NCBI RefSeq assembly: GCF_037042905.1
Contig: NC_087246.1
Span: 13,716,233 to 13,780,232 of the forward strand
Source of the DNA: Lytechinus pictus
Taxonomy: Eukaryota
DNA: 64,000 nt
Reading direction: 5' to 3'
Below the pieces are notes generated by a model. That model was not told the DNA's origin. It was given only the letters and a program-made list of their open reading frames with translations, and did not search any database. Every line of letters starts with the position of its first letter. Within the stretch, counting starts at the first letter, position 1. Shown here in pieces: positions 3,372 through 63,796 of the stretch. The position numbers and the translations under genes are program-made.

Positions 3372-4536
3372 TTAATTCATATTTGAGCTGTTTGATCCTA
3401 AGCGACTCAAATGCAGCCCATTTCCCTCCTTGCTCAACCGAGTAGAACGGGTCTGAAGAGAATCATGGGTTTTCCCTTTAGTCTTATTACCTTCAAGGTA
3501 GTTAATGAAGGTATACAGGACAGGGTTGATAGAGGAATTGATTGGGATGATGAAAATTACAGTCCAGGCATATAGGGAGGTCGGTAGAACGACGAGTCCG
3601 GTTTGCGTCAAGATACCCAAAACTATGATGGGCATCCAACAAGCGAAGTCAGTCCCAACAATAAACGCCATCTTTCGGGCGATCTGGATTTCGCGATTTC
3701 TGCCCGCCGAGTTCCGGATGGACTCCGACGAGCGTTTAACGGTCACAAACATCACGACGTAGCAAATAAGGATGGTCAGGAAAAGTGCCATGTTCAAACC
3801 GATAAAGGTTACGATTGAGAATACCCAGACATTCCTGTTGTCGTAATCGGTAACTACGTACTTTACAATGTATTCGGAACTCAGCTCCTCGTCCCAGACA
3901 ATGTCCAGTCTGCCAGTCTCTCCGAGTTCTACATGGAGCGGTAAACCGATACAGACATCGGATAGTCCATAGAACCCGGGTACGTTATATCCGACAAGGA
4001 ATGGAACCGAGCTAAACAAGAGAGTGAAGAACCATGTGAATACGACGGCGAAGCTGGCAGTTTTGGTAGTCATCTTGAATTTTCCAAAGGGATAAACAAT
4101 GCTGATGTACCTATCCAGGGTGATTAGGGTCAGTGTGAATACGGACAGTTCGCTCGAGAAAAATGCAAGAAATGAGGATAATTTACAAGGGAAGGATTCT
4201 CTCCAGAGCGGGGCACTAAGGAAATATAGTCTATTGAAATAAACATCAGCAGATGTTATGATGATCATATAAACACCCATCAGGGAGTCTGCGACGGCTA
4301 GGTTCATTGTGAGGATGTTCTGGACGGTCTTGCGTTGTTTCTGGGTAGCGCGCAGAAATAAGACGAACACATTCCCACATAGAGAAGAGAGGCCGATGAT
4401 CCAACCGGCAAATCGCAGGACGGTACTTGGGTACAAGCTGCCGCAGGTGTCCAGGGGACTTGGTGGAGAAGTCCTGGCACAGGTGACGTTTTCAGAATGA
4501 CTGAGAAGACAACAGAGGCGGTTGTCAGATGTAGAC
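3372..4536 (-). CDS. LGR terminal exon: Cys-rich hinge, rhodopsin-like 7TM domain and C-terminal tail, stop at 3372-3374
   Basis: Acceptor tgtttctgacag at 4537. The hinge reads STSDNRLCCLLSHSENVTCARTSPPSPLDTCGS. TM1 reads GWIIGLSSLCGNVFVLFL. A LITLDRYISIVYP (DRY) motif follows TM3, FACWMP (CWxP) sits in TM6 and NPVLY (NPxxY) in TM7. This matches ORF 3372..4436(-), extended 5' in frame to the splice acceptor. Confidence 0.9.
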
Positions 4537-23028: not shown

Positions 23029-23394
23029 CTGTAAAAGCAGATAATAACAAACAATATATGGTTGGGTTTTTTCAATAAGAAAGGAAAGTAAAGTGCTGTA
23101 TAGTTTAACTTTCGATCGGAAAATGTATTGCCCTTAAGAGACATTCTAGTTATGGTACATTTACACTTTTTAAAGAAGGAACGAAATTCTATCTATCTTG
23201 ATTCTGCCATGTGAGATTAATCTTTCGGGATATTCATTAATCTATCTTGTAACCAGATTCTACCAATTTTCATTTCCATCGCAATTTGAAAATGTTTGAT
23301 TCATGCTGATACAATCGCAATGTGAAATGTAATCTTATTGTCAAGTGTTTTATTCTGCGAATTGTTCGGTATAAACAGCGAATCGACATATTAC

Positions 23395-23700
23395 CTCCGA
23401 AGCATGTTACTCCAGCGTCTTGAGAATGATTACAGTTATGAACTCCAAGCCCGCCATGAGAACAATTGAAAATGCTACTCTCGTTACCAACACAATGAAT
23501 GTCGTCGAGGATGATGTCTCCGATCCCTGGGCCAAAGTCATTGATGCTCACGGCGTGTCCGAAACCTAGACTTTTACAGATGACATTAGCATTCTTCATA
23601 TCCCAAGAGGTGTCGCAGACAGTACCTAGGTAGCCTTGATAAGCAACCTTCACCCGACCCTCTAGATACGTGCTCCCGTTGATGAGGAAGACGGCGTAAT
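23395..23700 (-). CDS. SRCR domain 4, single exon
   Basis: Acceptor caatacag. Encodes DYAVFLINGSTYLEGRVKVAYQGYLGTVCDTSWDMKNANVICKSLGFGHAVSINDFGPGIGDIILDDIHCVGNESSIFNCSHGGLGVHNCNHSQDAGVTCFGG. Donor GTAATA, phase 1. Confidence 0.8.
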
Positions 23701-24351
23701 CTGTATTGGCAATATAAAGCTCTAATAATCTAGAATTCTACGCTCTTTCGCTAATCTTCCCAATATAATCAGGGCCACTCACTTTGTTGGATCTCGGTAA
23801 GTTACTAGTATTTTTAACATTCAAACTTACTTTCCTAACTTTTGCATTTTCTTACGGGAAGCAACTCTTAATTTATAAAGATTTATTAGTAACCCCTTCT
23901 ATAACATGACACATACTCCTCAACAATTGCTCTTATTCTAATTTCTCTGACGATTACGGTAAGGTTAGTAAGTCTGAAATAATGATGTGATGGGATTTTG
24001 GTTGAGAATGGAGTGAGGATTAGGATGATGGCGAGGATACGGTTTCGGGTCAGGATTTATGTTGGCTTATAATGTGTGCATTTCCCGTATAAGCAATTGT
24101 TGCAGGAGTATGTGCTATCCCCCCCCCCCCCAAAAAAAAAAAAAAAAAAAAAATCTCTTTACATAATTAGCTAGCAGAGTAATATATTCTCTGCAATGGA
24201 ATTTTGATAATGGTGAAAAGATTAATATTGAGAATATTAAGATTAATATTCAATAAAGCCAAATAACACATTTGTAAGGATGGACAATATTTGTGAAAAG
24301 TACATGTCAGATTCAGTAATTACCTTTTGAACATAAATTCTGTATCTTTAC

Positions 24352-24660
24352 CTTCTGGTGAACAAGTGACTCCCGCGTCCATTTGATGAAAGCATTTGAA
24401 GAAATTCGTATCATCACTTTCGCATTCGTAAATATTCGTTTCGCTGCCGGTGCACTGGAGACCATCCAAGACGATATCGCCCGTTCCCTGCCCGAAGTCT
24501 GCGTACGACGACGCACTCAGTGCGAAGGTGTGACCGAGACTCTTGCAGACTACGTGAGCATCGATGATATCGAAGTGGTGACTGCACACCGTACCCCAGG
24601 AACCATCGTAGAACACTTCAACCCGACCCTCAAGGCTGTTGATTCCACCAACTAGGCGAA
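24352..24660 (-). CDS. SRCR domain 3, single exon
   Basis: Acceptor gttacag. Encodes VRLVGGINSLEGRVEVFYDGSWGTVCSHHFDIIDAHVVCKSLGHTFALSASSYADFGQGTGDIVLDGLQCTGSETNIYECESDDTNFFKCFHQMDAGVTCSPE. Donor GTAAAG, phase 1. Confidence 0.8.
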
Positions 24661-25488
24661 CTGTAACATGATTGAGTAAACACAGGATCCAATATAACCA
24701 AAAATAATAATAATACACAATACGAAATGAAAATTAATCACGTAAACCCTTAGCCTTTCATTAATTTACCCTCCGAATATATATATATATATATATATAT
24801 ATTTGAGTCATCACCCAAAAAAATTACTTGAAGTAAACAACATAACTTCTTAAACAATTAAAGTCATTTATAAAAAAAATTAGCAAGAGTGTGCCAAGAC
24901 ACTGCCCTGTGGAACACCATATAAAAGACAGGCTTATGTTAAGAGTAATTACCGATAAATAACACAAAATAATAGTAAGCACCCTTTAGTATAGTTCTCA
25001 AACCACATGCACCACCACGAATCCCACAGTCAATGACTTTGCACAAATGACAATAGTTTTTGCTCCTTATTTGCTTACAATTTCCTTGTTAGATGATCTT
25101 TCGAATAACTTCACCGAATTGACCCTTTACCAAAGCTTTGGACATTTAATCCAACTTACAAGTTGATAAAAATTATTGTCAAGGCATACATGTATATGTG
25201 CCATCTGAACTGTATCCTAAAGTATCACATCATCGTGTCTAAGCTCGAAATCCGATAATACTTTTAAAGTCTTTTAATGCAAGTAGAATTCATTTTCGTC
25301 CGTGTTCTTTTTAGATCATTTTTGTAACGATTAAATTAAGTTTGACATTATAACATATGTTGAGCCATACAGGATAAAGTAGTATATAGAATGTATATTC
25401 AAAATAAGATAGGTCGATGTTGGATTGATATTTAGTCATTAACATAACTTGAATCTCTAAATTCGACGACATAAAAAACTATGCTTAC

Positions 25489-29545: not shown

Positions 29546-30716
29546 ATTCAATAAAAATAACGTGATAATTGATATTGAAAACTATTTATTCAGCAATTAT
29601 TCACTCTGCGGTTTTTACGTACAGCTTCCGAGACCTGATAATTGATAACGTGATAATTGATATTGAAAACTATTTATTCAGCAATTATTCACTCTGCGGT
29701 TTTTACGTACAGCTTGCGAGACATAATCGACAACAATACATACATTTCCAATCTCAAAACTCACAAAAGCAAAATATAAAGTGCGGCGTACCACAGGGAT
29801 CAATTCTGGGACCCCTACTTTTTATTATCTATATTAATGATATCATAAATTCATCCCCAATTCTAAATTTCATATTTTTGGCCGACGATACCAGTATTTT
29901 CTATTCCCATGCTAATTTAGATACTCTAACTCATATTCTTAATTCAGAACTCTCTAAAATATCCCAATGGTTTAAAACAAACAAACTTTCACTTAACATA
30001 AGCAAAACCAATTTTATACACTTTCGAGAAGCTAATCCACACTTACCAGCTCCCAATTTATCAATTGACGGTTTACCTCTTACTGAAAAGCACTCTACCA
30101 AATTCTTGGGAGTAACAATTGACTCCAATCTAACGTGGAATGAACACATACACAATGTACATACATCTATATCAAGAAACATAGGAATAATTTACAACTT
30201 AAAAGACTTACTTTCTGAAAAATCATTATTGGTTCTATACAACTCCCTAGTACTTTCACATATGATGTATTGCAATATTGTATGGGGTAACTGAAGTATA
30301 ACGAAAATAAACTCTCTTCTACTTCTCCAAAAACGAGCAATTCGTAACGTTACTCATTCGCATTATATTTCCCACACAGAACCTCTATTTCAGCGTTTAA
30401 ATGCACTTAAAATACAGGATATTCACACTCTACAAACAGGTATATTTATGTTTAGATACACTTACAATAATCTTCCATCATTATTCCAAAATCTATTCAA
30501 TTTAAATTCAAATATACATGCATATCCAACCCGCCACTCTTCTGATTATCATCTACACAACCCCAAACTTATTCTTGCTCAAAAATCAGTTCGCCATCAT
30601 GGACCAGATACCTGGAATTCCTTACCACAATACTTAAAACAATGTCCCTCTCTTAACTCATTCAAATCATCCTTTAAAAAAATTATGACACGCAAATACA
30701 ATTCTGAATAATTTAT
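29546..30716 (+). mobile_element. 5'-truncated CR1/L2-like LINE: RT C-terminal half and ORF2 tail with frameshifts
   Basis: ORF 29569..30294 holds RT motifs KCGVPQGSILGPLLFIIYINDI and FLADDTSIF (an FADD variant of YXDD). The downstream frame 30448..30711 has the CR1-type C-terminal tail ...HGPDTWNSLPQYLKQCPSLNSFKSSFKK. Near-identical 27-37 bp direct repeats (atatatagcaaNttNttactttttaccgtggatga) at 29501-29545 and 31679-31716 may be target-site duplications. If so, the element extends to 31688, including a CA-rich microsatellite tail. Confidence 0.65.
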
Positions 30717-48349: not shown

Positions 48350-49623
48350 GTGAGTTATATTTGATGGTAATGAACTTGATGATGTGGGGATGGATGGGAG
48401 GGGATGTCAGAACAAAAGGGGAGGAAAAGAAAGTGGATCTAACAAAGGAGGAAGAAGATGAGAAGGCCTAGATTGCAAAATGAAGGCGGATAAGTTAAAG
48501 GGGAGGATGACAGAGGAGAAAATTTAAAAAAAGAACATGCAATGTTTGAATTTTTCTGTAAAAGGGTCTTTGATCGTAATTGAGTATCAGAAAACTACAG
48601 ACCAAGTTTATTTCCTAGAATTATGACGTCAGCAACAAGCTTCATCTCTAATACGTTTGCCTATTTTATGGATTCTATTTACGGATAATAAGTCAAATAT
48701 ACACATAAATGTGTTTGGTAGTATATTATAGTTTCAAAATACGATTTGATGAGTAATTTTACATCATTATCTACATTTTCCAAATTGGCTAATTAGCTAT
48801 AACTTGCCAATTTGGAAATCGTAGGTATGGGTGTAAAATCAAAACTCATCGAATTGAATTTTTAAAATTAAATATGTTAACTAATTGAGCATAATATACA
48901 TGTATTTATGAGCTTTAAGTGTATAATTGATTTATTATTTGTGAAATAGAATCTATAATAGGCAAACGTAAATATCTGCTTAGAGATATAGTTCTTCGCC
49001 AACGTCACAATTTTGAACCCTGCCAAAATTGCTATATTCATCCCGAGACTTTGAACCTGAAGAAGCCCCACTTTAAAGAGGTGGTGCTCCATACCGGAAA
49101 ATCGCATTGGGGTATAAGTGGATTTATTTTGATTATCCTGTATTTATAAATGATATGTGATATCAGATTTTTGGTTTCATTTTCCTTTAAGAACAATGGT
49201 CTCTGCATGATCCTACTTGTAAAAACCTTGCCACAGGAACTTGAGAATGCTTATAAATTTATCTCGTGCAAGTCTGATCATTAAAACTTTATTGTATTTA
49301 TTATTAAAACAAATGAAAAAGACTTTTCCTAAAAATACAATATAGGCCTACAGTGGTGCTCAAAAGTCGGCGAACCCCACCAGAAAATGAACATATTTAA
49401 AGTGTTCACATTCTGCAATGTTTTCGATATTTAATTTGTGAAGTCACATGATAAAATATTACATTCAACACAGTTTATTTTTCTTGGCTCACCAAACATT
49501 GTAGTGTTGTTGTCTACAGTGCATTTTGAGGTGGGGTGTACTAACTTTGAGCAAAACTGTACTTACATGTTTATAATATACTTAAAACTGCATCATTTAT
49601 CTTGTTCATGCTTTGTCTTGCAG

Positions 49624-49823
49624 CTGGGTGGTCTGAGGGCAAAGAGCCAGAGTTTTGGAGAGGCGACCGCTGAACCTGGCTTGACCTTCATAGCGGCCAA
49701 GTTTGATGGCATTCTTGGACTGGGTTACCCAACCATTACCAGGATCAGTAAACTTCCTGTGTTTGACAACATTGTAAAGCAGGGCCTTGTTCAGGATGCT
49801 GTATTTGCAGTTTATCTCGCAAA
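49624..49823 (+). CDS. CTSD: CTSD-like exon 5
   Basis: Acceptor tcttgcag. Encodes LGGLRAKSQSFGEATAEPGLTFIAAKFDGILGLGYPTITRISKLPVFDNIVKQGLVQDAVFAVYLA(K). Donor GTATGT. Confidence 0.9.
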
Positions 49824-50172
49824 GTATGTATAAGCTCAATTTGAAATTGAATTTTATTTTACAAAACAAAGCAAAGATTTTGCTACTTTTCATCGGAATA
49901 ATGATCTTGCTTTTGGTGTGGACCATTTATTTGTGATCCAATCGTTTGTTGTGTGACCATTTATTTGTGATCCAATCATTTGGTTTGTGATGTGCATCCT
50001 GTATCAGATTAATGTTCGGTTGAAATCTGATTCTGATCACATCATAAGAATACTAACAAGGATTGATGCATTCACTTTCAAGCATGTATGGTTATAGGAA
50101 GTCAGCTCAACTATAAAGGATTATCTTCATCTCCCCTTTTTGTCTCTCTCTCTTCTATTCCTCTTTCGACAG

Positions 50173-56400: not shown

Positions 56401-57419
56401 GTGTTAGACGCTGGCCAGGATTCAAGCTATATGAGGTTGCACAAAATATTGTTAGGTTTCCTTATCAAAATGGTACACAAACATTGAATAAATTAAGAAA
56501 ATCAGTGTGTCAGAGTGTCATTTGATTAAGAATGGCCGCTTCAACACTGAGCACTTTGCATCTTTTCTTTCTTACATTCCCCCTAGAAATCACTGCTAGT
56601 CCAAACAAAGTGTTAAGTACAGTGCATAGAAGAGGGCAATGTTTATGTTCGGTTTAATATCAACAACACGATCATACAGTGCACATAGCCATTTAATGTC
56701 TGGAAAAAATATATATTTCAATCAAAAATATTAAAGAATGATATTGTTATTTAAAAGGCAACTATATACTGGTGCCTTATATATTCCCTGTCCCCCCAAA
56801 ACCCCCCCCCCCCCCCCCCCGTAGAAAAGTAAATCCAGCAAACACAAGTTGATTCCAGTGAAGGCCAACCAAAACAAAAAGTAGGTTTGAAAAAAAGAAA
56901 AAATGAACAACAATAATGCAAATTCAATAAAAATCAGATGTTAAATGATAGATTAAATTGTAAATTTCACTTATTTCCATAAATAAGGCAATTTACACTT
57001 TGATGACATATTCATCATATGCCCATATCATTTTTCTCTATTTATTCATATAAATCTATTATTTTGGGTGGATTTGTGCTCTCATAGAAATCACTAACAA
57101 TATCCCAAACAACTTCCAAATCAGGTGAATATACAAACAGGTATGGACATTTATTGTATATAAATTTGAATAGCTTCTAATGGCCTAAAGTCAGAAAACA
57201 GTAGTTATGAAAATCAAGCAAATTGGATATCATCATGAACTTGTGAAGGCACGTCTATCTGGAAAAGTAGTACTGATCTTATAATAAAATTAGAAACTCT
57301 GAGCATAATATCTCAATATTAAAAACATACAAATTATAAAAAATTTTATCAGGTATCAAAGTTGGTCTATTGAATACAATATTTAGGAGTATTTCTTTGG
57401 GAAACTAAATATTTGAGAA

Positions 57420-57806
57420 TCAAGTCCATCTGAGAGGCCCTGTTATCAACAAGGTTGTGACCAGTCCCACCAAGGCAATATCAACTGCAGGTTTCTTTAA
57501 GATGTTGGTCACCGTAGCAACAACTCCTTCCTCCTCTTTCTTATCCATCTCTCTCTCCTCTTCTTCCTTGTCTGTCTTGGCCACTCCCTCATTGCCATGG
57601 TGACATGAGACGGGTGAGAGGCGTTGGAAGTCTGGTGAGTTCTCAGTGAAGACAATCTTCCTTGTGGTGCAGTCCAGGGATGATGGTGTGAGGGTTGGGG
57701 TTGGAAGAGGACTTGGGGAGTAGATCTCACGGATGCTGGTGAGTTCTGATGCAAAGTGAACAGACTTCCTTTGTAGCTTGGCTGTGGGTATGGAAGGGCT
57801 TTCCAT
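57420..57806 (-). CDS. Putative terminal myosin tail exon ending in a hydrophobic C-terminal (tail-anchor-like) segment
   Basis: Acceptor tatttccag sits immediately before the codon ATG GAA. Phase 0 matches the upstream donor. Encodes MESPSIPTAKLQRKSVHFASELTSIREIYSPSPLPTPTLTPSSLDCTTRKIVFTENSPDFQRLSPVSCHHGNEGVAKTDKEEEEREMDKKEEEGVVATVTNILKKPAVDIALVGLVTTLLITGPLRWT* (ORF 57420..57806). Confidence 0.55.
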   Translation of the reverse strand: MESPSIPTAKLQRKSVHFASELTSIREIYSPSPLPTPTLTPSSLDCTTRKIVFTENSPDFQRLSPVSCHHGNEGVAKTDKEEEEREMDKKEEEGVVATVTNILKKPAVDIALVGLVTTLLITGPLRWT

Positions 57807-58815
57807 CTGGAAATACCAAATGTAAAAACTTTAACATTCATTGGAGGGACCCAAACATACTTGGAATAAAAATGAAACTGGTTTGAATGAGTTATCTCAC
57901 TTATGAGGGTGTTTCATCCTTCCCAATGCCTGTAAGTTTTTTTTACATAAAAATTTATATCAACAATTCAAAAATTTCAACATTGATGAACAAAGTATAA
58001 AATCAGTAACAACTTCTCTATAACTAATCATTCCATTATTAATTAATTTTTGGGCTTCTGCTTGTGAAGGAAGGACTCTAAAAATTACTTCTTGAAAAGC
58101 AAAAGGACTTCCAAAACCACTGAAATTACCATTTGCTTCTTTCAGGAGAAGGGTAGAAGCTAATATTGTTAAAAATATGCTAGCATTTATTTTTGTTTAA
58201 AAAAACATTCAGTATTTAGAAAAGTGTTGGAGGTGTACATTTAAAAAAATGTGAATATACACTCGAAAAGTGGTGTAATTCTTAGGGGGGAATCTATATC
58301 GAAGATTTTAAAAAAATATTTCATCACTTTGATGTCAGTACACATTTCACCAAATGCATAATTCTTAGATTATTTTAGTCAATTCCTTTTATTCCTATCC
58401 AACATTCTTTGAGGGAACATTGCAAAAATGCAACTAAAAAAATTTCATGCAAGCCCTAAATTTTGATTTGGGGAATGTAAATCAATCACATCTGTTTCTG
58501 AAAATGGGCCACAGATCTGTAGTCCATTTCATAAAACTTGTTGTAAAAACAAATCTACAATAACAATTAAAAGATACAGGAATTCTTCAATCTGATTGGC
58601 TGATAGTGAATTTGTTATTGAAATTGTGCATTTGTTATTATAACAAGTCTTTATGAAATGAACCCCGATCCTGGGCCCTGTTTCATGAAGATTTTAATAA
58701 AGAACAAATGCTACAATTTGCTCTCGGTCAATCCAATAATTGCATCATTTCAGTAGCTTATCTGTAACTTGTCAATCATAGCAGGTTTCATGAAACTGGA
58801 ACCATATCCCAATAC

Positions 58816-59003
58816 CTTCTCATCCTCCTCGACTCCCCCGATGTTGTCCACATCCTGCTCTTCTTCAAAATCATCTTCATAGATAGATGCATCTAGTCTC
58901 TCCTGCCTCTTTCTGAACAAGTAGTCCAACATGGCATGTTGTATCACCCTAGCTGCATGATCCATGATCTTGATGGCGTTACGTACCCTCCAACCTCGAT
59001 AAC
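58816..59003 (-). CDS. Myosin lever-arm / proximal tail exon (IQ motif 3, acidic stretch)
   Basis: Acceptor ctttcag. Encodes (G)YRGWRVRNAIKIMDHAARVIQHAMLDYLFRKRQERLDASIYEDDFEEEQDVDNIGGVEEDEK. Putative donor GTATTG after GAG AAG. Alternatively, read-through to the stop at 58750 would give a C-terminus ...VLGYGSSFMKPAMIDKLQISY*. Confidence 0.7.
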
Positions 59004-59894: not shown

Positions 59895-60024
59895 CAGCTT
59901 GTATAACTGAAGCAGCCCATTCTCTCTCCCCTATGACAAGAGCTCTGTAAACTCTCCAGGCTCTCTGGATTATGGCAGCACACTGGGAAAGCTTCTTCAT
60001 ACGTTGACTCTCAAGGTATTCCAA
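59895..60024 (-). CDS. Myosin lever-arm exon (IQ motifs 1 and 2)
   Basis: Acceptor ttttcag, donor GTAGGT. Encodes LEYLESQRMKKLSQCAAIIQRAWRVYRALVIGEREWAASVIQA(G). Confidence 0.8.
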
Positions 60025-60834: not shown

Positions 60835-61030
60835 CTGGCCTTCTCTAAGAAAGATCTTTGTCTTGCCAAGCTGCTGAGTGGATGAACTATCTGATTGATT
60901 CTCCTTATCATCATCACTAAACAAGCTCCTGTAGATGAGTCTACATCTGTTTCGTATTGACCCTTGGTCATCCGTCTCCTCCTTGGGAAGGAGGATACTG
61001 TATCTCTCACAGAAATCTGCATGTGATAAC
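60835..61030 (-). CDS. Myosin converter / end-of-motor exon
   Basis: Acceptor ttttcag, donor GTATGT. Encodes LSHADFCERYSILLPKEETDDQGSIRNRCRLIYRSLFSDDDKENQSDSSSTQQLGKTKIFLREGQ. It matches ORF 60826..61050(-). Confidence 0.85.
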
Positions 61031-61811
61031 CTGAAAAATTGACAATTCATTTTAGTTTATTACTACTTTCAAAATAACTTAGTTTTATTTTTACATTCAG
61101 ATTTATTCAAACTCCTGTAGACAAATCTATGACCCGAGGTCACCCTCTTCCCCCTCAAAATAAGTATGCTGCATGGAAAAAGTCATAGGTTAGGGTTGGA
61201 ATATGCTCAAAATTCAGCTTATCAGAACCCAATACTAAAGATATTGCAACAGCTGCATTGGAAGACTGTATATTCAAAATTGATTTGCATGAAAATTTTA
61301 CAAGGCAGGATTTGGGTCCACTGTTATTATACTTTTCGCATTAAATTCAAGATAGACTTTCCCTCGTAGGCTATATTACAGACACACCTGACCCACATTA
61401 CACAAAACACCTGACTGCTTCCAAGTTCCTTGATCAATGCAATTGATTGTGAAAATCATCCTTACAATTATTTGCTAAGCTTTGAGGTATGGGGCCCTGG
61501 AGCTAGTTAAAATAGATAGCAACGTTGAAATTTCAAACCTATCTTTGCTTTCAACCAATCAGAAGTAAGCATTTTGGACTTTATATAGGATCAATTTTTT
61601 TGTGAGTTGTGTGTTAAATGATATATTTCTGCAAAGAGCCTCTGGATCTAATTCATATAAATCTCGCTTTTGATAAAATTCTTGGAATTTTGTACAAGCT
61701 TGCTCTCATTCAATCAAACTGAAGGATTTCAGTATTTTACAACAGTATCGCCCAACTTTCCTGGGATTACAATTTTTTTTTTAACAGGGCTCTAATATAA
61801 ATCCAACTCAC

Positions 61812-61990
61812 TTTGAAGGAAACCCTGCAGCACTGATAGCCACAGTTTCCAAGACACCACAAGCTCTCAGCTGAGAGGCAACAAAACGGCTGTCAAACAA
61901 GTCTGGCTGGCACTGAAAATTGGGTTTTATGCATCTGATGTAGTGAGGAGTCGTAGAGGTCAGTGTGGTCATTAGACTCCCCAAAGACTC
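61812..61990 (-). CDS. Myosin motor exon (SH1/SH2 region)
   Basis: Acceptor aattcag, donor GTGAGT. Encodes [59 protein letters not shown](K). Confidence 0.9.
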
Positions 61991-62442
61991 CTGAATTTAA
62001 GAAAAGTGCACTCAATTAAATAATAATAAATCAAAAGAATGAGCAGGCAAATAATTCTTATGGTCAGTCCATTTTGTTTATAGGGATCATTGATTTGTTT
62101 TTCCTTCTTTCTTTCTTTATCATCAAATAATATCTATTTATATACTATCTATCTATTTAGTTAAATTCATATGACAACAACAAAGTTTCTTCAATTAGTG
62201 TACACATGACTAGAAAAGTTGCTAAATGTACATTCTTATAAAAAGTGGCTTTTCATCTGAGCTACATGTACATGCATCTGTCACTATTTATTATACATGT
62301 ATTTCTCTGTATTTTATGAAATTAATGAAGAAAACAGAAAGAATATTATTGACATGTAACTAGATGCTACTCCTGGTAAATCTGATTGAAATCATAAGCC
62401 ATGTCGTTGTAATTAAACAGAATATTTTACACTCAATATTAC

Positions 62443-62502
62443 CTTGAATCTTGAAACAACAGTCTTGCTGAGTTTTGATTTGGATCCCTTACTCTGGAGC
62501 TC
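62443..62502 (-). CDS. Myosin motor exon (loop-2 region)
   Basis: Acceptor ttgaacag, donor GTAATA. Encodes ELQSKGSKSKLSKTVVSRFK. Confidence 0.75.
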
Positions 62503-62852
62503 CTGTTCAATAAAAAAAGAGCAAAAAAATTGTGAATCAAATTTTAAAAAGGGAAAAAAATAAATCCTGCCTATTTTACTGAATGTTGAAATCTCATTCC
62601 TGGGGAAAGAAAATAACTGGCATATTGCAATATTTTCTTTTGAAATAACATATCATCAAGACAAAGTAAACAGTTGCTATATAATTGGTTCAATTAACCT
62701 TTGTTTGCAGAAGGGATGTTTGGGTAAATTTTGCATAGGCAAGAAAAAGTCTCAATCACGAATTTGAGATTACTGGGAACCATGGGAACATATAGGGAAA
62801 GAGAGCAAATCCAGTTCTTTTAAATCAATCTTATCATTGAATTATTTTTTAC

Positions 62853-62945
62853 CTGCAACCTCTCTTGTTCAGGCTGAATGATCTTGGTCACAAACTGATT
62901 TGTGCTTTCCATCAAAACTTCAATCAATTCCATTGGAATTGGATC
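62853..62945 (-). CDS. Myosin motor exon
   Basis: Acceptor ttctag, donor GTAAAA. Encodes DPIPMELIEVLMESTNQFVTKIIQPEQERLQ. Confidence 0.75.
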
Positions 62946-63355
62946 CTAGAATGAAAAGAAAACAGAAATTTTTATTTAAAACTTATTTCCACAGCTGACA
63001 ATTAAACTTCTCCATGTACTACACATTGCAGTCAAAGAGCCTAACTCATTAGATAGTTGACTCCCATTTAATGACAAAAATTCACAATGATGGATTAACT
63101 TTAACAATATAGTATTCAAGTTTGTATTCACACAGCTGGGTTAAGTTAACCCATTGGTTAAAGCGTGTCATTTGACATAATTAGTACAATCCCAGGTCAT
63201 ATCACTTATGTAAACCGTGGTCTGACTAAACCCATCTTTGTGAAATATAAATTTTTCAACCCGGAAGTTGAAATTAGCCAATGGATTCAAGTTTACCCAA
63301 GTTTGTAAATTCAAGCTTAATGAAGATTACAGTTATGGATGTTTTATCAATGAAT

Positions 63356-63546
63356 GCCTGGTGGGTGTTTCATAAAGCTGTTCGTAAGTTAAGAGCGACT
63401 TTAAGAACGACTGGTGATCCTTTCTTACGCGCAAAACCCTCGCCAATGAAGGTTTTTGTGTATATTATTTACCCCAAGAAAGGATCACCAGTCGTTCTTA
63501 AAGTCGCTCTTAACGTACGAACAGCTTTATGAAACGGCCCCCAGGT
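63356..63546. mobile_element. Hairpin MITE family C (stem about 68 bp, arms share tttcataaagctgttcgt), inside a myosin intron
   Basis: The arm at 63356-63426 is the reverse complement of the arm at 63477-63546 with about 95% identity. Confidence 0.45.
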
Positions 63547-63619
63547 CAAAAGAGGGACAATCATTAAGAGAGGATGAATTCTGGATGAATGGACCCTAAG
63601 GAAAACAAATGTACCTTAC

Positions 63620-63796
63620 CTTAGTCTTTTCTATCAAGCCTGGTATATCATAGGTGACCAATCCAGCGTAATGTTTGATGGTAAACGCTGATTGTGGATG
63701 ATTCATAGGAGCTTTGGTCAAGAAGGGACTATCTACCGCTGCTAACAGTTTCTCCTCAAAAGATGTCGTGTCAGATTGGCGGTTCAGTCGGCATTC
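63620..63796 (-). CDS. Myosin motor exon
   Basis: Acceptor aaatag, donor GTAAGG. Encodes ECRLNRQSDTTSFEEKLLAAVDSPFLTKAPMNHPQSAFTIKHYAGLVTYDIPGLIEKTK, phases 0/0. Confidence 0.85.

Follow-up and report, generated by a model that had tools for sequence, protein, structure and literature searches.

The stretch of DNA examined here, a window of 64,000 nucleotides from the sea urchin Lytechinus pictus (contig NC_087246.1), carries on its minus strand the 3′ end of a myosin-XIX gene that we identify as the L. pictus ortholog of MYO19, the actin motor of mitochondria. The established features of this gene, namely its exon model, its membership of class XIX, the physicochemical character and conservation of its C-terminal segment and the lack of a recognizable Miro-binding region, enable us to propose a model for the attachment of the motor to its organelle. 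In our view the C-terminal helix of ambulacrarian Myo19 probably fastens the motor straight to the outer membrane of mitochondria with no receptor in between, whether as a tail anchor proper or simply as a membrane-inserted segment, a proposal drawn from sequence and structure prediction. A stronger version, in which these proteins are bona fide tail-anchored myosins whose helix spans the bilayer and whose Miro-dependent recruitment has been lost, is a real possibility that we put forward more tentatively.

Eight minus-strand exons (63796-63620, 62945-62853, 62502-62443, 61990-61812, 61030-60835, 60024-59895, 59003-58816 and 57806-57420) join in a single frame, with AG at every acceptor and GT at every donor, into a product of 469 residues that ends in NILKKPAVDIALVGLVTTLLITGPLRWT. 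From its N-terminal end, this product runs through roughly the final 232 residues of the motor, the three IQ motifs and an acidic stretch to a linker that is Ser/Pro-rich and acidic, and then to the C-terminal ending. The first five exons (60835-63796) encode the C-terminal third of the motor, as judged by Pfam and an exact match to XP_063966274.1, and the remainder of the motor lies beyond the end of the window. The motor finishes in the exon at 59895-60024, which also encodes IQ1 and the first part of IQ2; the rest of IQ2, together with IQ3 and the acidic stretch (...VEEDEK), comes from the exon at 58816-59003. The final coding exon (57420-57806) consists of 128 codons and a TGA stop (57422-57420) and encodes the linker followed by the conserved C-terminal module. 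Beyond the stop, the minus strand holds two AATAAA matches to the consensus, at 57150-57155 (264 nucleotides downstream) and 57046-57041 (373 nucleotides). The intron between the exons ending at 63620 and beginning at 62945 as read on this strand contains a 70-nucleotide inverted repeat (63357-63545; arms 63357-63426 and 63476-63545), with arms 94% complementary across a 49-nucleotide spacer and the appearance of a hairpin of the miniature inverted-repeat transposable element type.

At the last junction, a donor at 58816/58815 (GAGAAG/GTATTG) is joined to an acceptor at 57807/57806 (TTTCCAG/ATGGAA) in phase 0. The original prediction, made from the DNA alone, had proposed exactly this splice from ...VEEDEK into an exon opening with ATG GAA, and had placed the stop reached by in-frame read-through of the last intron (57807-58815, 1009 nucleotides) at 58750 (...KLQISY), where it indeed lies. 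The 469-residue model is contained residue for residue in two RefSeq L. pictus proteins named "unconventional myosin-XIX-like", XP_063966274.1 (1046 residues) and XP_063966279.1 (1023 residues), two isoforms distinguished only by 23 residues close to the N-terminus. Gene and protein are therefore already known, and what the original prediction recovered is an existing annotation. The L. variegatus protein differs from the model at 20 of 469 positions.

That the tail exon belongs to another gene or is a prediction artifact, with the real protein stopping at 58750, is hardly credible. The exon does start with ATG immediately after its acceptor; however, the S. purpuratus locus has its junction at the identical codon (GAGAAG/GTAAAC ... 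CCAG/GTGGAT; acceptor CCAG/GTGGATAGC) and opens the exon with GTG (Val), so that the L. pictus ATG is not a conserved start. Moreover, the join of motor, IQ motifs and tail has been predicted independently in at least 11 species from six classes or phyla, which together with the GTG codon rules out a separate gene beginning at this ATG. The peptides obtained by reading through the intron are unrelated in the two urchins (VNKHQSK and a stop in S. purpuratus, VLGYGSSFMKPAMIDKLQISY and a stop in L. pictus), as expected of an intron, whereas the frame of the tail exon is under purifying selection. Between L. pictus and S. purpuratus its ratio of nonsynonymous to synonymous substitution rates (dN/dS) is 0.24, the 128 codons differing at 75 nucleotide and 32 amino-acid positions, and over the last 35 codons the ratio is 0.10 with dS similar at 0.54. 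The exon join is thus supported by comparative evidence, which is indirect as to transcripts.

The assignment to class XIX is carried by the motor. Pfam recognizes Myosin_head in the 469-residue product (E 5.7e-50, profile positions 447-679) and past the motor returns nothing except sub-threshold IQ and IQ-like matches, although all three IQ motifs anticipated by the original prediction can be read in the translation (AAIIQRAWRVYR, ASVIQAGYRGWRVR and AARVIQHAMLDYLFRKR). The tail after IQ3 is about 155 residues long and has no Pfam domain, matching the class XIX plan of an IQ neck, with three motifs in human MYO19, and a short tail lacking coiled coil and recognized domains; the length of about 190 residues first given for it is correct as the sum of the last two exons but not as the tail. 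The nearest named proteins are the myosin-XIX proteins of echinoderms, Saccoglossus, amphioxus and vertebrates. In a neighbor-joining tree of 472 motor columns from the full L. pictus protein, the class XIX clade has 86% bootstrap support, as against only 56% for the same placement from the 216 motor columns inside the window alone. The motor shares 47-48% of its residues with MYO19 of human, shark and coelacanth, against 36-40% with myosin V. The likeness to MYO19 suggested at the outset is therefore borne out by the motor phylogeny, in which the protein clusters with no other class. This placement agrees with published work that puts class XIX next to myosin V as its sister and dates it to before the origin of animals (PMC3942036).

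The C-terminal segment of the L. pictus protein has the layout KK-PAVDIALVGLVTTLLIT-GPLRWT. A juxtamembrane amphipathic segment, GVVATVTNILKK (57492-57527; hydrophobic moment 0.47), ends in the KK flank and is followed by the predicted anchor helix PAVDIALVGLVTTLLIT (57441-57491), which marks the most hydrophobic 19-residue window of the 1046-residue protein, and by the last six residues, GPLRWT (57423-57440), with the invariant Gly-Pro, one basic residue and a net charge of +1. The helix scores 1.91 over 19 residues and 2.15 over 16 residues on the Kyte-Doolittle scale, and has a mean hydrophobicity of 0.64 with a hydrophobic moment of 0.03. This hydropathy lies within the range of the BCL-XL, Miro1 and FIS1 anchors, reference sequences that serve for calibration only. 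AlphaFold2, given the last 70 residues and an 11-sequence alignment, models one helix at residues 48-64, corresponding exactly to PAVDIALVGLVTTLLIT (predicted local distance difference test score about 82) and bounded by Pro and Gly-Pro, together with a short helix at model residues 38-44, ahead of KKP; the remainder is disordered. The original prediction of a tail-anchor-like C-terminus is thus well founded as a description of the segment, which stands out in hydropathy and is conserved across the sampled Ambulacraria. The helix is shorter than first claimed, with 17 rather than 18 residues and an Asp at its fourth position, while the KK before it and the six residues including an Arg after it are as described. 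A profile search of the module against PDB sequences gave nothing meaningful.

The same ending is present in all 11 ambulacrarian Myo19 proteins compared (L. pictus, S. purpuratus, Diadema, Patiria, Acanthaster, Asterias, Amphiura, Holothuria, Anneissia, Antedon and Saccoglossus), and is common to the sampled echinoids, asteroids, ophiuroid, holothurian, crinoids and the acorn worm Saccoglossus. In each of them the extreme C-terminus is the most hydrophobic 19-residue window of a protein of about 1000 residues (Kyte-Doolittle 1.49-2.06). The helices have moments of 0.01-0.13 and mean Eisenberg hydrophobicities of 0.35-0.67, a combination of low moment and high hydrophobicity that falls in the transmembrane corner of the Eisenberg plot and not among surface-seeking helices. 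When aligned, the endings open with an amphipathic stretch, such as TLVSIFKK, that has a hydrophobic moment of 0.47-0.68, and most then carry a pair of basic residues. P-A-V-D/E comes next, ahead of a 12-residue core in which hydrophobic or small residues vary, and K/R/H/T-G-P-phi-(R/K/H/Q/N)-phi precedes the stop. Alignment columns L26, G30 and P31 are invariant and P13, A14, V15, A18 and L27 nearly so; the core of the helix varies among hydrophobic and small residues and its flanks, PAVD and GP, are fixed. The KK (or K/R) N-flank occurs in echinoids, asteroids, the ophiuroid and the holothurian, and the six-residue C-tail has a charge of +1 in every species except Holothuria, where it is +2. 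We also note that a near-invariant Pro-Ala-Val with an acidic residue and a Gly-Pro closure is more specific than a generic anchor requires.

Outside this module of about 34 residues the tail cannot be aligned between echinoderm classes, and conservation of the module alone is what would be expected of a cargo-binding element. When 247 proteins were screened for a hydrophobic 16-mer within their last 25 residues, it turned up in every ambulacrarian model with this C-terminus, isoforms and duplicates counted, and in three unrelated fragments, but was absent from the vertebrate MYO19 sequences, which numbered more than 100. An exhaustive search of representatives with a three-sequence tail profile recovered only the Diadema and Antedon Myo19 tails and two repeat-protein false positives; beyond its own class the tail has diverged too far for sequence searches to reach it. 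A word-indexed protein search with the same alignment found no match, even to its own S. purpuratus sequence, a negative that is unreliable for short low-complexity queries.

Within the variable linker encoded at 57806-57600 on the minus strand, two motifs are conserved among echinoids, R-K-S-V-H-F-A and K-I-V/I-F-T-E-N-S-P-D-F, and crinoid linkers retain R-I-Q-F-H-E-N. Both echinoid motifs fit the loose protein phosphatase 1 docking pattern, [RK]-x(0,1)-[VI]-x-[FW], and may equally be a divergent form of the Miro-binding F/acidic motif. In the crinoid Antedon mediterranea several Myo19-like gene models (P0134, P0136, P0122, P0002, P0004 and P0005) lie on one 38.96-Mb contig, and may be either a tandem duplication or redundant models. 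Their tails contain tandem repeats of the KEVEDQDKRDKFTSK type in varying number, and the models with a full tail (P0134, P0136, P0122 and P0005) end in the hydrophobic module.

The second distinguishing feature of these tails is what they lack. In human MYO19, F948 and E954 bind the ELF pocket of Miro1 within a Miro-binding region spanning residues 898-970 (PMC10897228), and K923, R927 and K928 are required for Miro2-dependent localization (bioRxiv 10.1101/602938). Vertebrate tails present an internal hydrophobic helix (human ...IIRLWPLGLVLANTAMGVGSFQRK...), a conserved middle block that holds K923/R927/K928 and a terminal motif, T-G-F-N-Q-I-L-L-E, that contains F948 and E954. Neither the G-I-x-S-I-R...G-S/P-I-K-F-H region of chordates and molluscs nor the GFNQILLE motif occurs in the 11 ambulacrarian tails or in the window, and when vertebrate, lungfish and Dreissena tails were compared with the window by tblastn, in case a Miro-binding exon lay concealed further downstream, only noise came back (E > 1). 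The sampled ambulacrarian tails thus have no recognizable MyMOMA domain with its Miro-binding region, as delimited by human residues 898-970 with F948/E954 and K923/R927/K928. The MyMOMA domain was defined on vertebrates, and as class membership is set by the motor, its absence marks a tail variant and not exclusion from class XIX.

The reverse arrangement is seen in amphioxus (GIASIRQVLKGPIVLHVKASVL...; P0137/P0138, Branchiostoma), the bivalve Dreissena (GIITRRKLPSGPVRFHTRASVL...; P0010) and the snail Candidula (GIITCRRLTKPGYRFHVRKGVL...; P0072), the non-ambulacrarian, non-vertebrate tails that we compared. These possess a Miro-type basic middle block and no hydrophobic helix, the best 19-residue Kyte-Doolittle window being 0.22 in Dreissena and 1.19 in amphioxus. 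From these sequences, the two attachment modules of vertebrate MYO19 appear separately in different phyla. This is most simply read as an ancestral bilaterian Miro-type region that was replaced or truncated in the ambulacrarian stem lineage.

In the model that we propose, the motor and its three light-chain-binding IQ motifs would be carried on a flexible linker, some 120 residues long, acidic, rich in Ser and Pro and poorly conserved, which leads into the module of about 34 residues: an amphipathic helix, KK, the Pro-capped 17-residue helix PAVDIALVGLVTTLLIT, Gly-Pro and the six-residue tail. Once translated, the protein would insert this hydrophobic helix into the outer membrane of mitochondria, as a tail anchor or at any rate as a C-terminal membrane-inserted helix, and the helix would couple the motor to the organelle directly and constitutively, with no receptor and without the Miro-binding region of chordate and mollusc Myo19. 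Miro-based recruitment and stabilization would be absent, or would act through another site. We infer membrane insertion, a transmembrane topology, a mitochondrial rather than endoplasmic reticulum (ER) or peroxisomal destination and independence of Miro.

Precedents for such an arrangement exist. Human MYO19 without its Miro region still binds mitochondria, with slow exchange, through its hydrophobic helix, and Miro-independent monotopic insertion of residues 860-890 into the outer membrane has been proposed (bioRxiv 10.1101/602938). In yeast, Myo2 whose cargo domain has been swapped for the FIS1 tail anchor localizes to mitochondria and restores their inheritance (PMC3153652). Together these two cases make receptor-free anchoring plausible. 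A tail-anchored protein has one hydrophobic transmembrane segment, so near the C-terminus that the signal recognition particle cannot engage it during translation, and neither a signal peptide nor a further transmembrane segment; it inserts after translation, leaving the N-terminus in the cytosol and carrying the C-terminus across the membrane. Charge and hydropathy jointly steer the targeting of such proteins, and among mammalian examples the mean tail charge is +1.12 in those confined to mitochondria, +0.21 in ER proteins and +6.0 in peroxisomal ones (Costello et al., PMC5450235). With a Kyte-Doolittle hydropathy of 1.5-2.1, a basic N-flank in the echinoids, asteroids, ophiuroid and holothurian and a C-tail of +1 to +2, the ambulacrarian endings have the statistics of mitochondrial tail anchors, whose short segment is moderately hydrophobic and whose C-tail is modestly positive; these statistics overlap with those of ER proteins.

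Several observations weigh against this model, and in particular against a helix that spans the bilayer. The charge-free run is 16 residues long in echinoids, Saccoglossus and crinoids (with His) and drops to 12 in the holothurian and the three asteroids, whose endings have Lys instead of Thr ahead of Gly-Pro, as compared with 16-27 residues in the reference anchors. The fourth position of the helix is acidic in all 11 species, being Asp (encoded at 57480-57482 on the minus strand in L. pictus) but Glu in S. purpuratus and Holothuria. On the Hessa biological scale the best 19-residue window sums to +4.1 kcal/mol, which is unfavorable for Sec61-type insertion. Miro-binding motifs are too divergent to be excluded by sequence alone (PMC10897228), and the evolutionary polarity rests on two molluscs, amphioxus and vertebrates. 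An uncharged core of 12-16 residues and an invariant acidic residue make monotopic insertion a serious rival, if on balance the less likely of the two. The helix would then enter one leaflet or sit as a shallow wedge without spanning, and Myo19 would have kept the membrane insertion of MYO19 while losing its Miro-binding part; the Hessa sum fits this, and human MYO19 is described in just this way, with adjacent basic residues deciding between mitochondria and ER (bioRxiv 10.1101/602938). Yet the hydrophobic moment is near zero, unlike that of in-plane amphipathic helices, and the segment is terminal, with six residues after it and nothing to hold both ends on one side of the membrane. The accepted anchor of Miro1 is likewise free of charged residues over a run of just 16 and has a Lys close to its end.

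A true tail anchor might also reside in another membrane (the ER, peroxisomes or several organelles), giving Myo19 a different or broader cargo. A tail charge of +1 and a hydropathy of about 1.9-2.15 do sit where mammalian mitochondrial and ER tail-anchored proteins overlap, and small changes switch the destination (PMC5450235), but we consider this improbable given the orthology to a mitochondrial motor, the basic C-tail residue kept in 11 of 11 species and a tail charge far below the peroxisomal mean of +6. Less probable again is that the module is a protein-binding peptide, a hydrophobic remnant of the ancestral Miro-binding region cut after "G-P/S-I-x-F" that docks on Miro or another outer-membrane receptor. 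By eye, the endings ...LLKGPVHF (starfish) and ...ITGPLRWT (urchin) match amphioxus LKGPIVLH, Dreissena PSGPVRFH and human PQGSIKFH, a motif that includes the K923 needed for Miro2-dependent localization, and the only match found by hhalign is in exactly that register. However, its probability is 2.9% over 7 columns, a figure on which we set aside homology of the ambulacrarian C-terminus to either the vertebrate monotopic helix or the GSIKFH motif as a result and keep it only as an idea. The core, furthermore, varies freely among hydrophobic residues, as in lipid-facing helices, and the segment is the most hydrophobic stretch of the whole protein.

Such an anchor would resemble several known systems without coinciding with any of them. 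Vertebrate MYO19 has the orthologous motor, three IQ motifs, a short Pfam-free tail and a hydrophobic helix with adjacent basic residues; its helix (WPLGLVLAN..., about 110-90 residues from the end), however, is internal, is described as monotopic and is followed by the Miro-binding region 898-970. In ambulacrarian Myo19, by contrast, the helix is terminal and that region is absent, and the tails share no significant similarity by hhalign (the 2.9% above). Miro1/2, FIS1, BCL-XL and BAK share with the ambulacrarian proteins a single moderately hydrophobic helix at most 25 residues from the C-terminus, basic flanks, a very short positive C-tail and a large cytosolic N-terminal domain, whereas the predicted Myo19 anchor has a shorter uncharged core (12-16 residues), an invariant acidic residue within the helix and strictly conserved Pro and Gly-Pro caps. 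The synthetic yeast Myo2-Fis1 chimera likewise fuses a class V-related motor to an outer-membrane anchor and drives mitochondrial transport (PMC3153652), but it is engineered, uses the FIS1 anchor and has no sequence relationship to ambulacrarian Myo19, which would be its natural counterpart. The only myosins termed "transmembrane myosin" in the searchable literature are those with chitin synthase tails (class XVII and mollusc/holozoan relatives). These enzymes cross the membrane several times, their tail is large, and they are unrelated to a single C-terminal anchor. We found no paper on a tail-anchored Myo19 or on an echinoderm Myo19 tail, and no use of the phrase "tail-anchored myosin", in a searchable library that is incomplete and lacks subscription journals.

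The attachment of MYO19 to mitochondria is debated, with a Miro receptor on one side and direct membrane insertion on the other. The motor class and the cellular job described here are as known; what differs, clade-wide, is the attachment module. The sampled Ambulacraria have the terminal helix only, the sampled molluscs and amphioxus the Miro-type region only, and vertebrates both, a modular distribution that makes the two mechanisms separable by comparison. The ambulacrarian module, at about 35 residues, is moreover compact enough to be tested as a peptide in the sea urchin embryo, a classic model for studying how organelles are inherited. A helix that truly spans the membrane would make this the first single-pass tail-anchored myosin to be described from nature, and if Miro recruitment has been lost as well, it would offer a natural test of the contribution of Miro regulation to actin-based mitochondrial positioning, relevant for example to the large, fast cleavage divisions of echinoderm embryos. 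If the helix is instead monotopic, the module would represent a minimal natural version of the human membrane-insertion motif.

Other features of the window lie outside the myosin gene. A plus-strand open reading frame at 49438-49833 contains a segment of a eukaryotic aspartyl protease (Pfam Asp, E 3.3e-18, profile positions 78-145) and probably represents one exon of a cathepsin D/pepsin-like gene that lies downstream of the myosin gene and runs in the opposite orientation. At 29569-30294, also on the plus strand, a reverse transcriptase fragment (RVT_1, E 3.9e-16) is likely the intergenic remnant of a retrotransposon of the non-long-terminal-repeat type. Two minus-strand open reading frames at 23270-23653 and 24320-24718 each encode one scavenger receptor cysteine-rich (SRCR) domain (E 1.7e-23 and 1.4e-28, respectively) and probably belong, as exons, to a single member of the large set of SRCR genes in sea urchins. 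Finally, an uninterrupted minus-strand open reading frame of 354 residues at 3372-4436 encodes a rhodopsin-family seven-transmembrane domain (Pfam 7tm_1, E 3.7e-31) and may be the transmembrane exon of a larger receptor.

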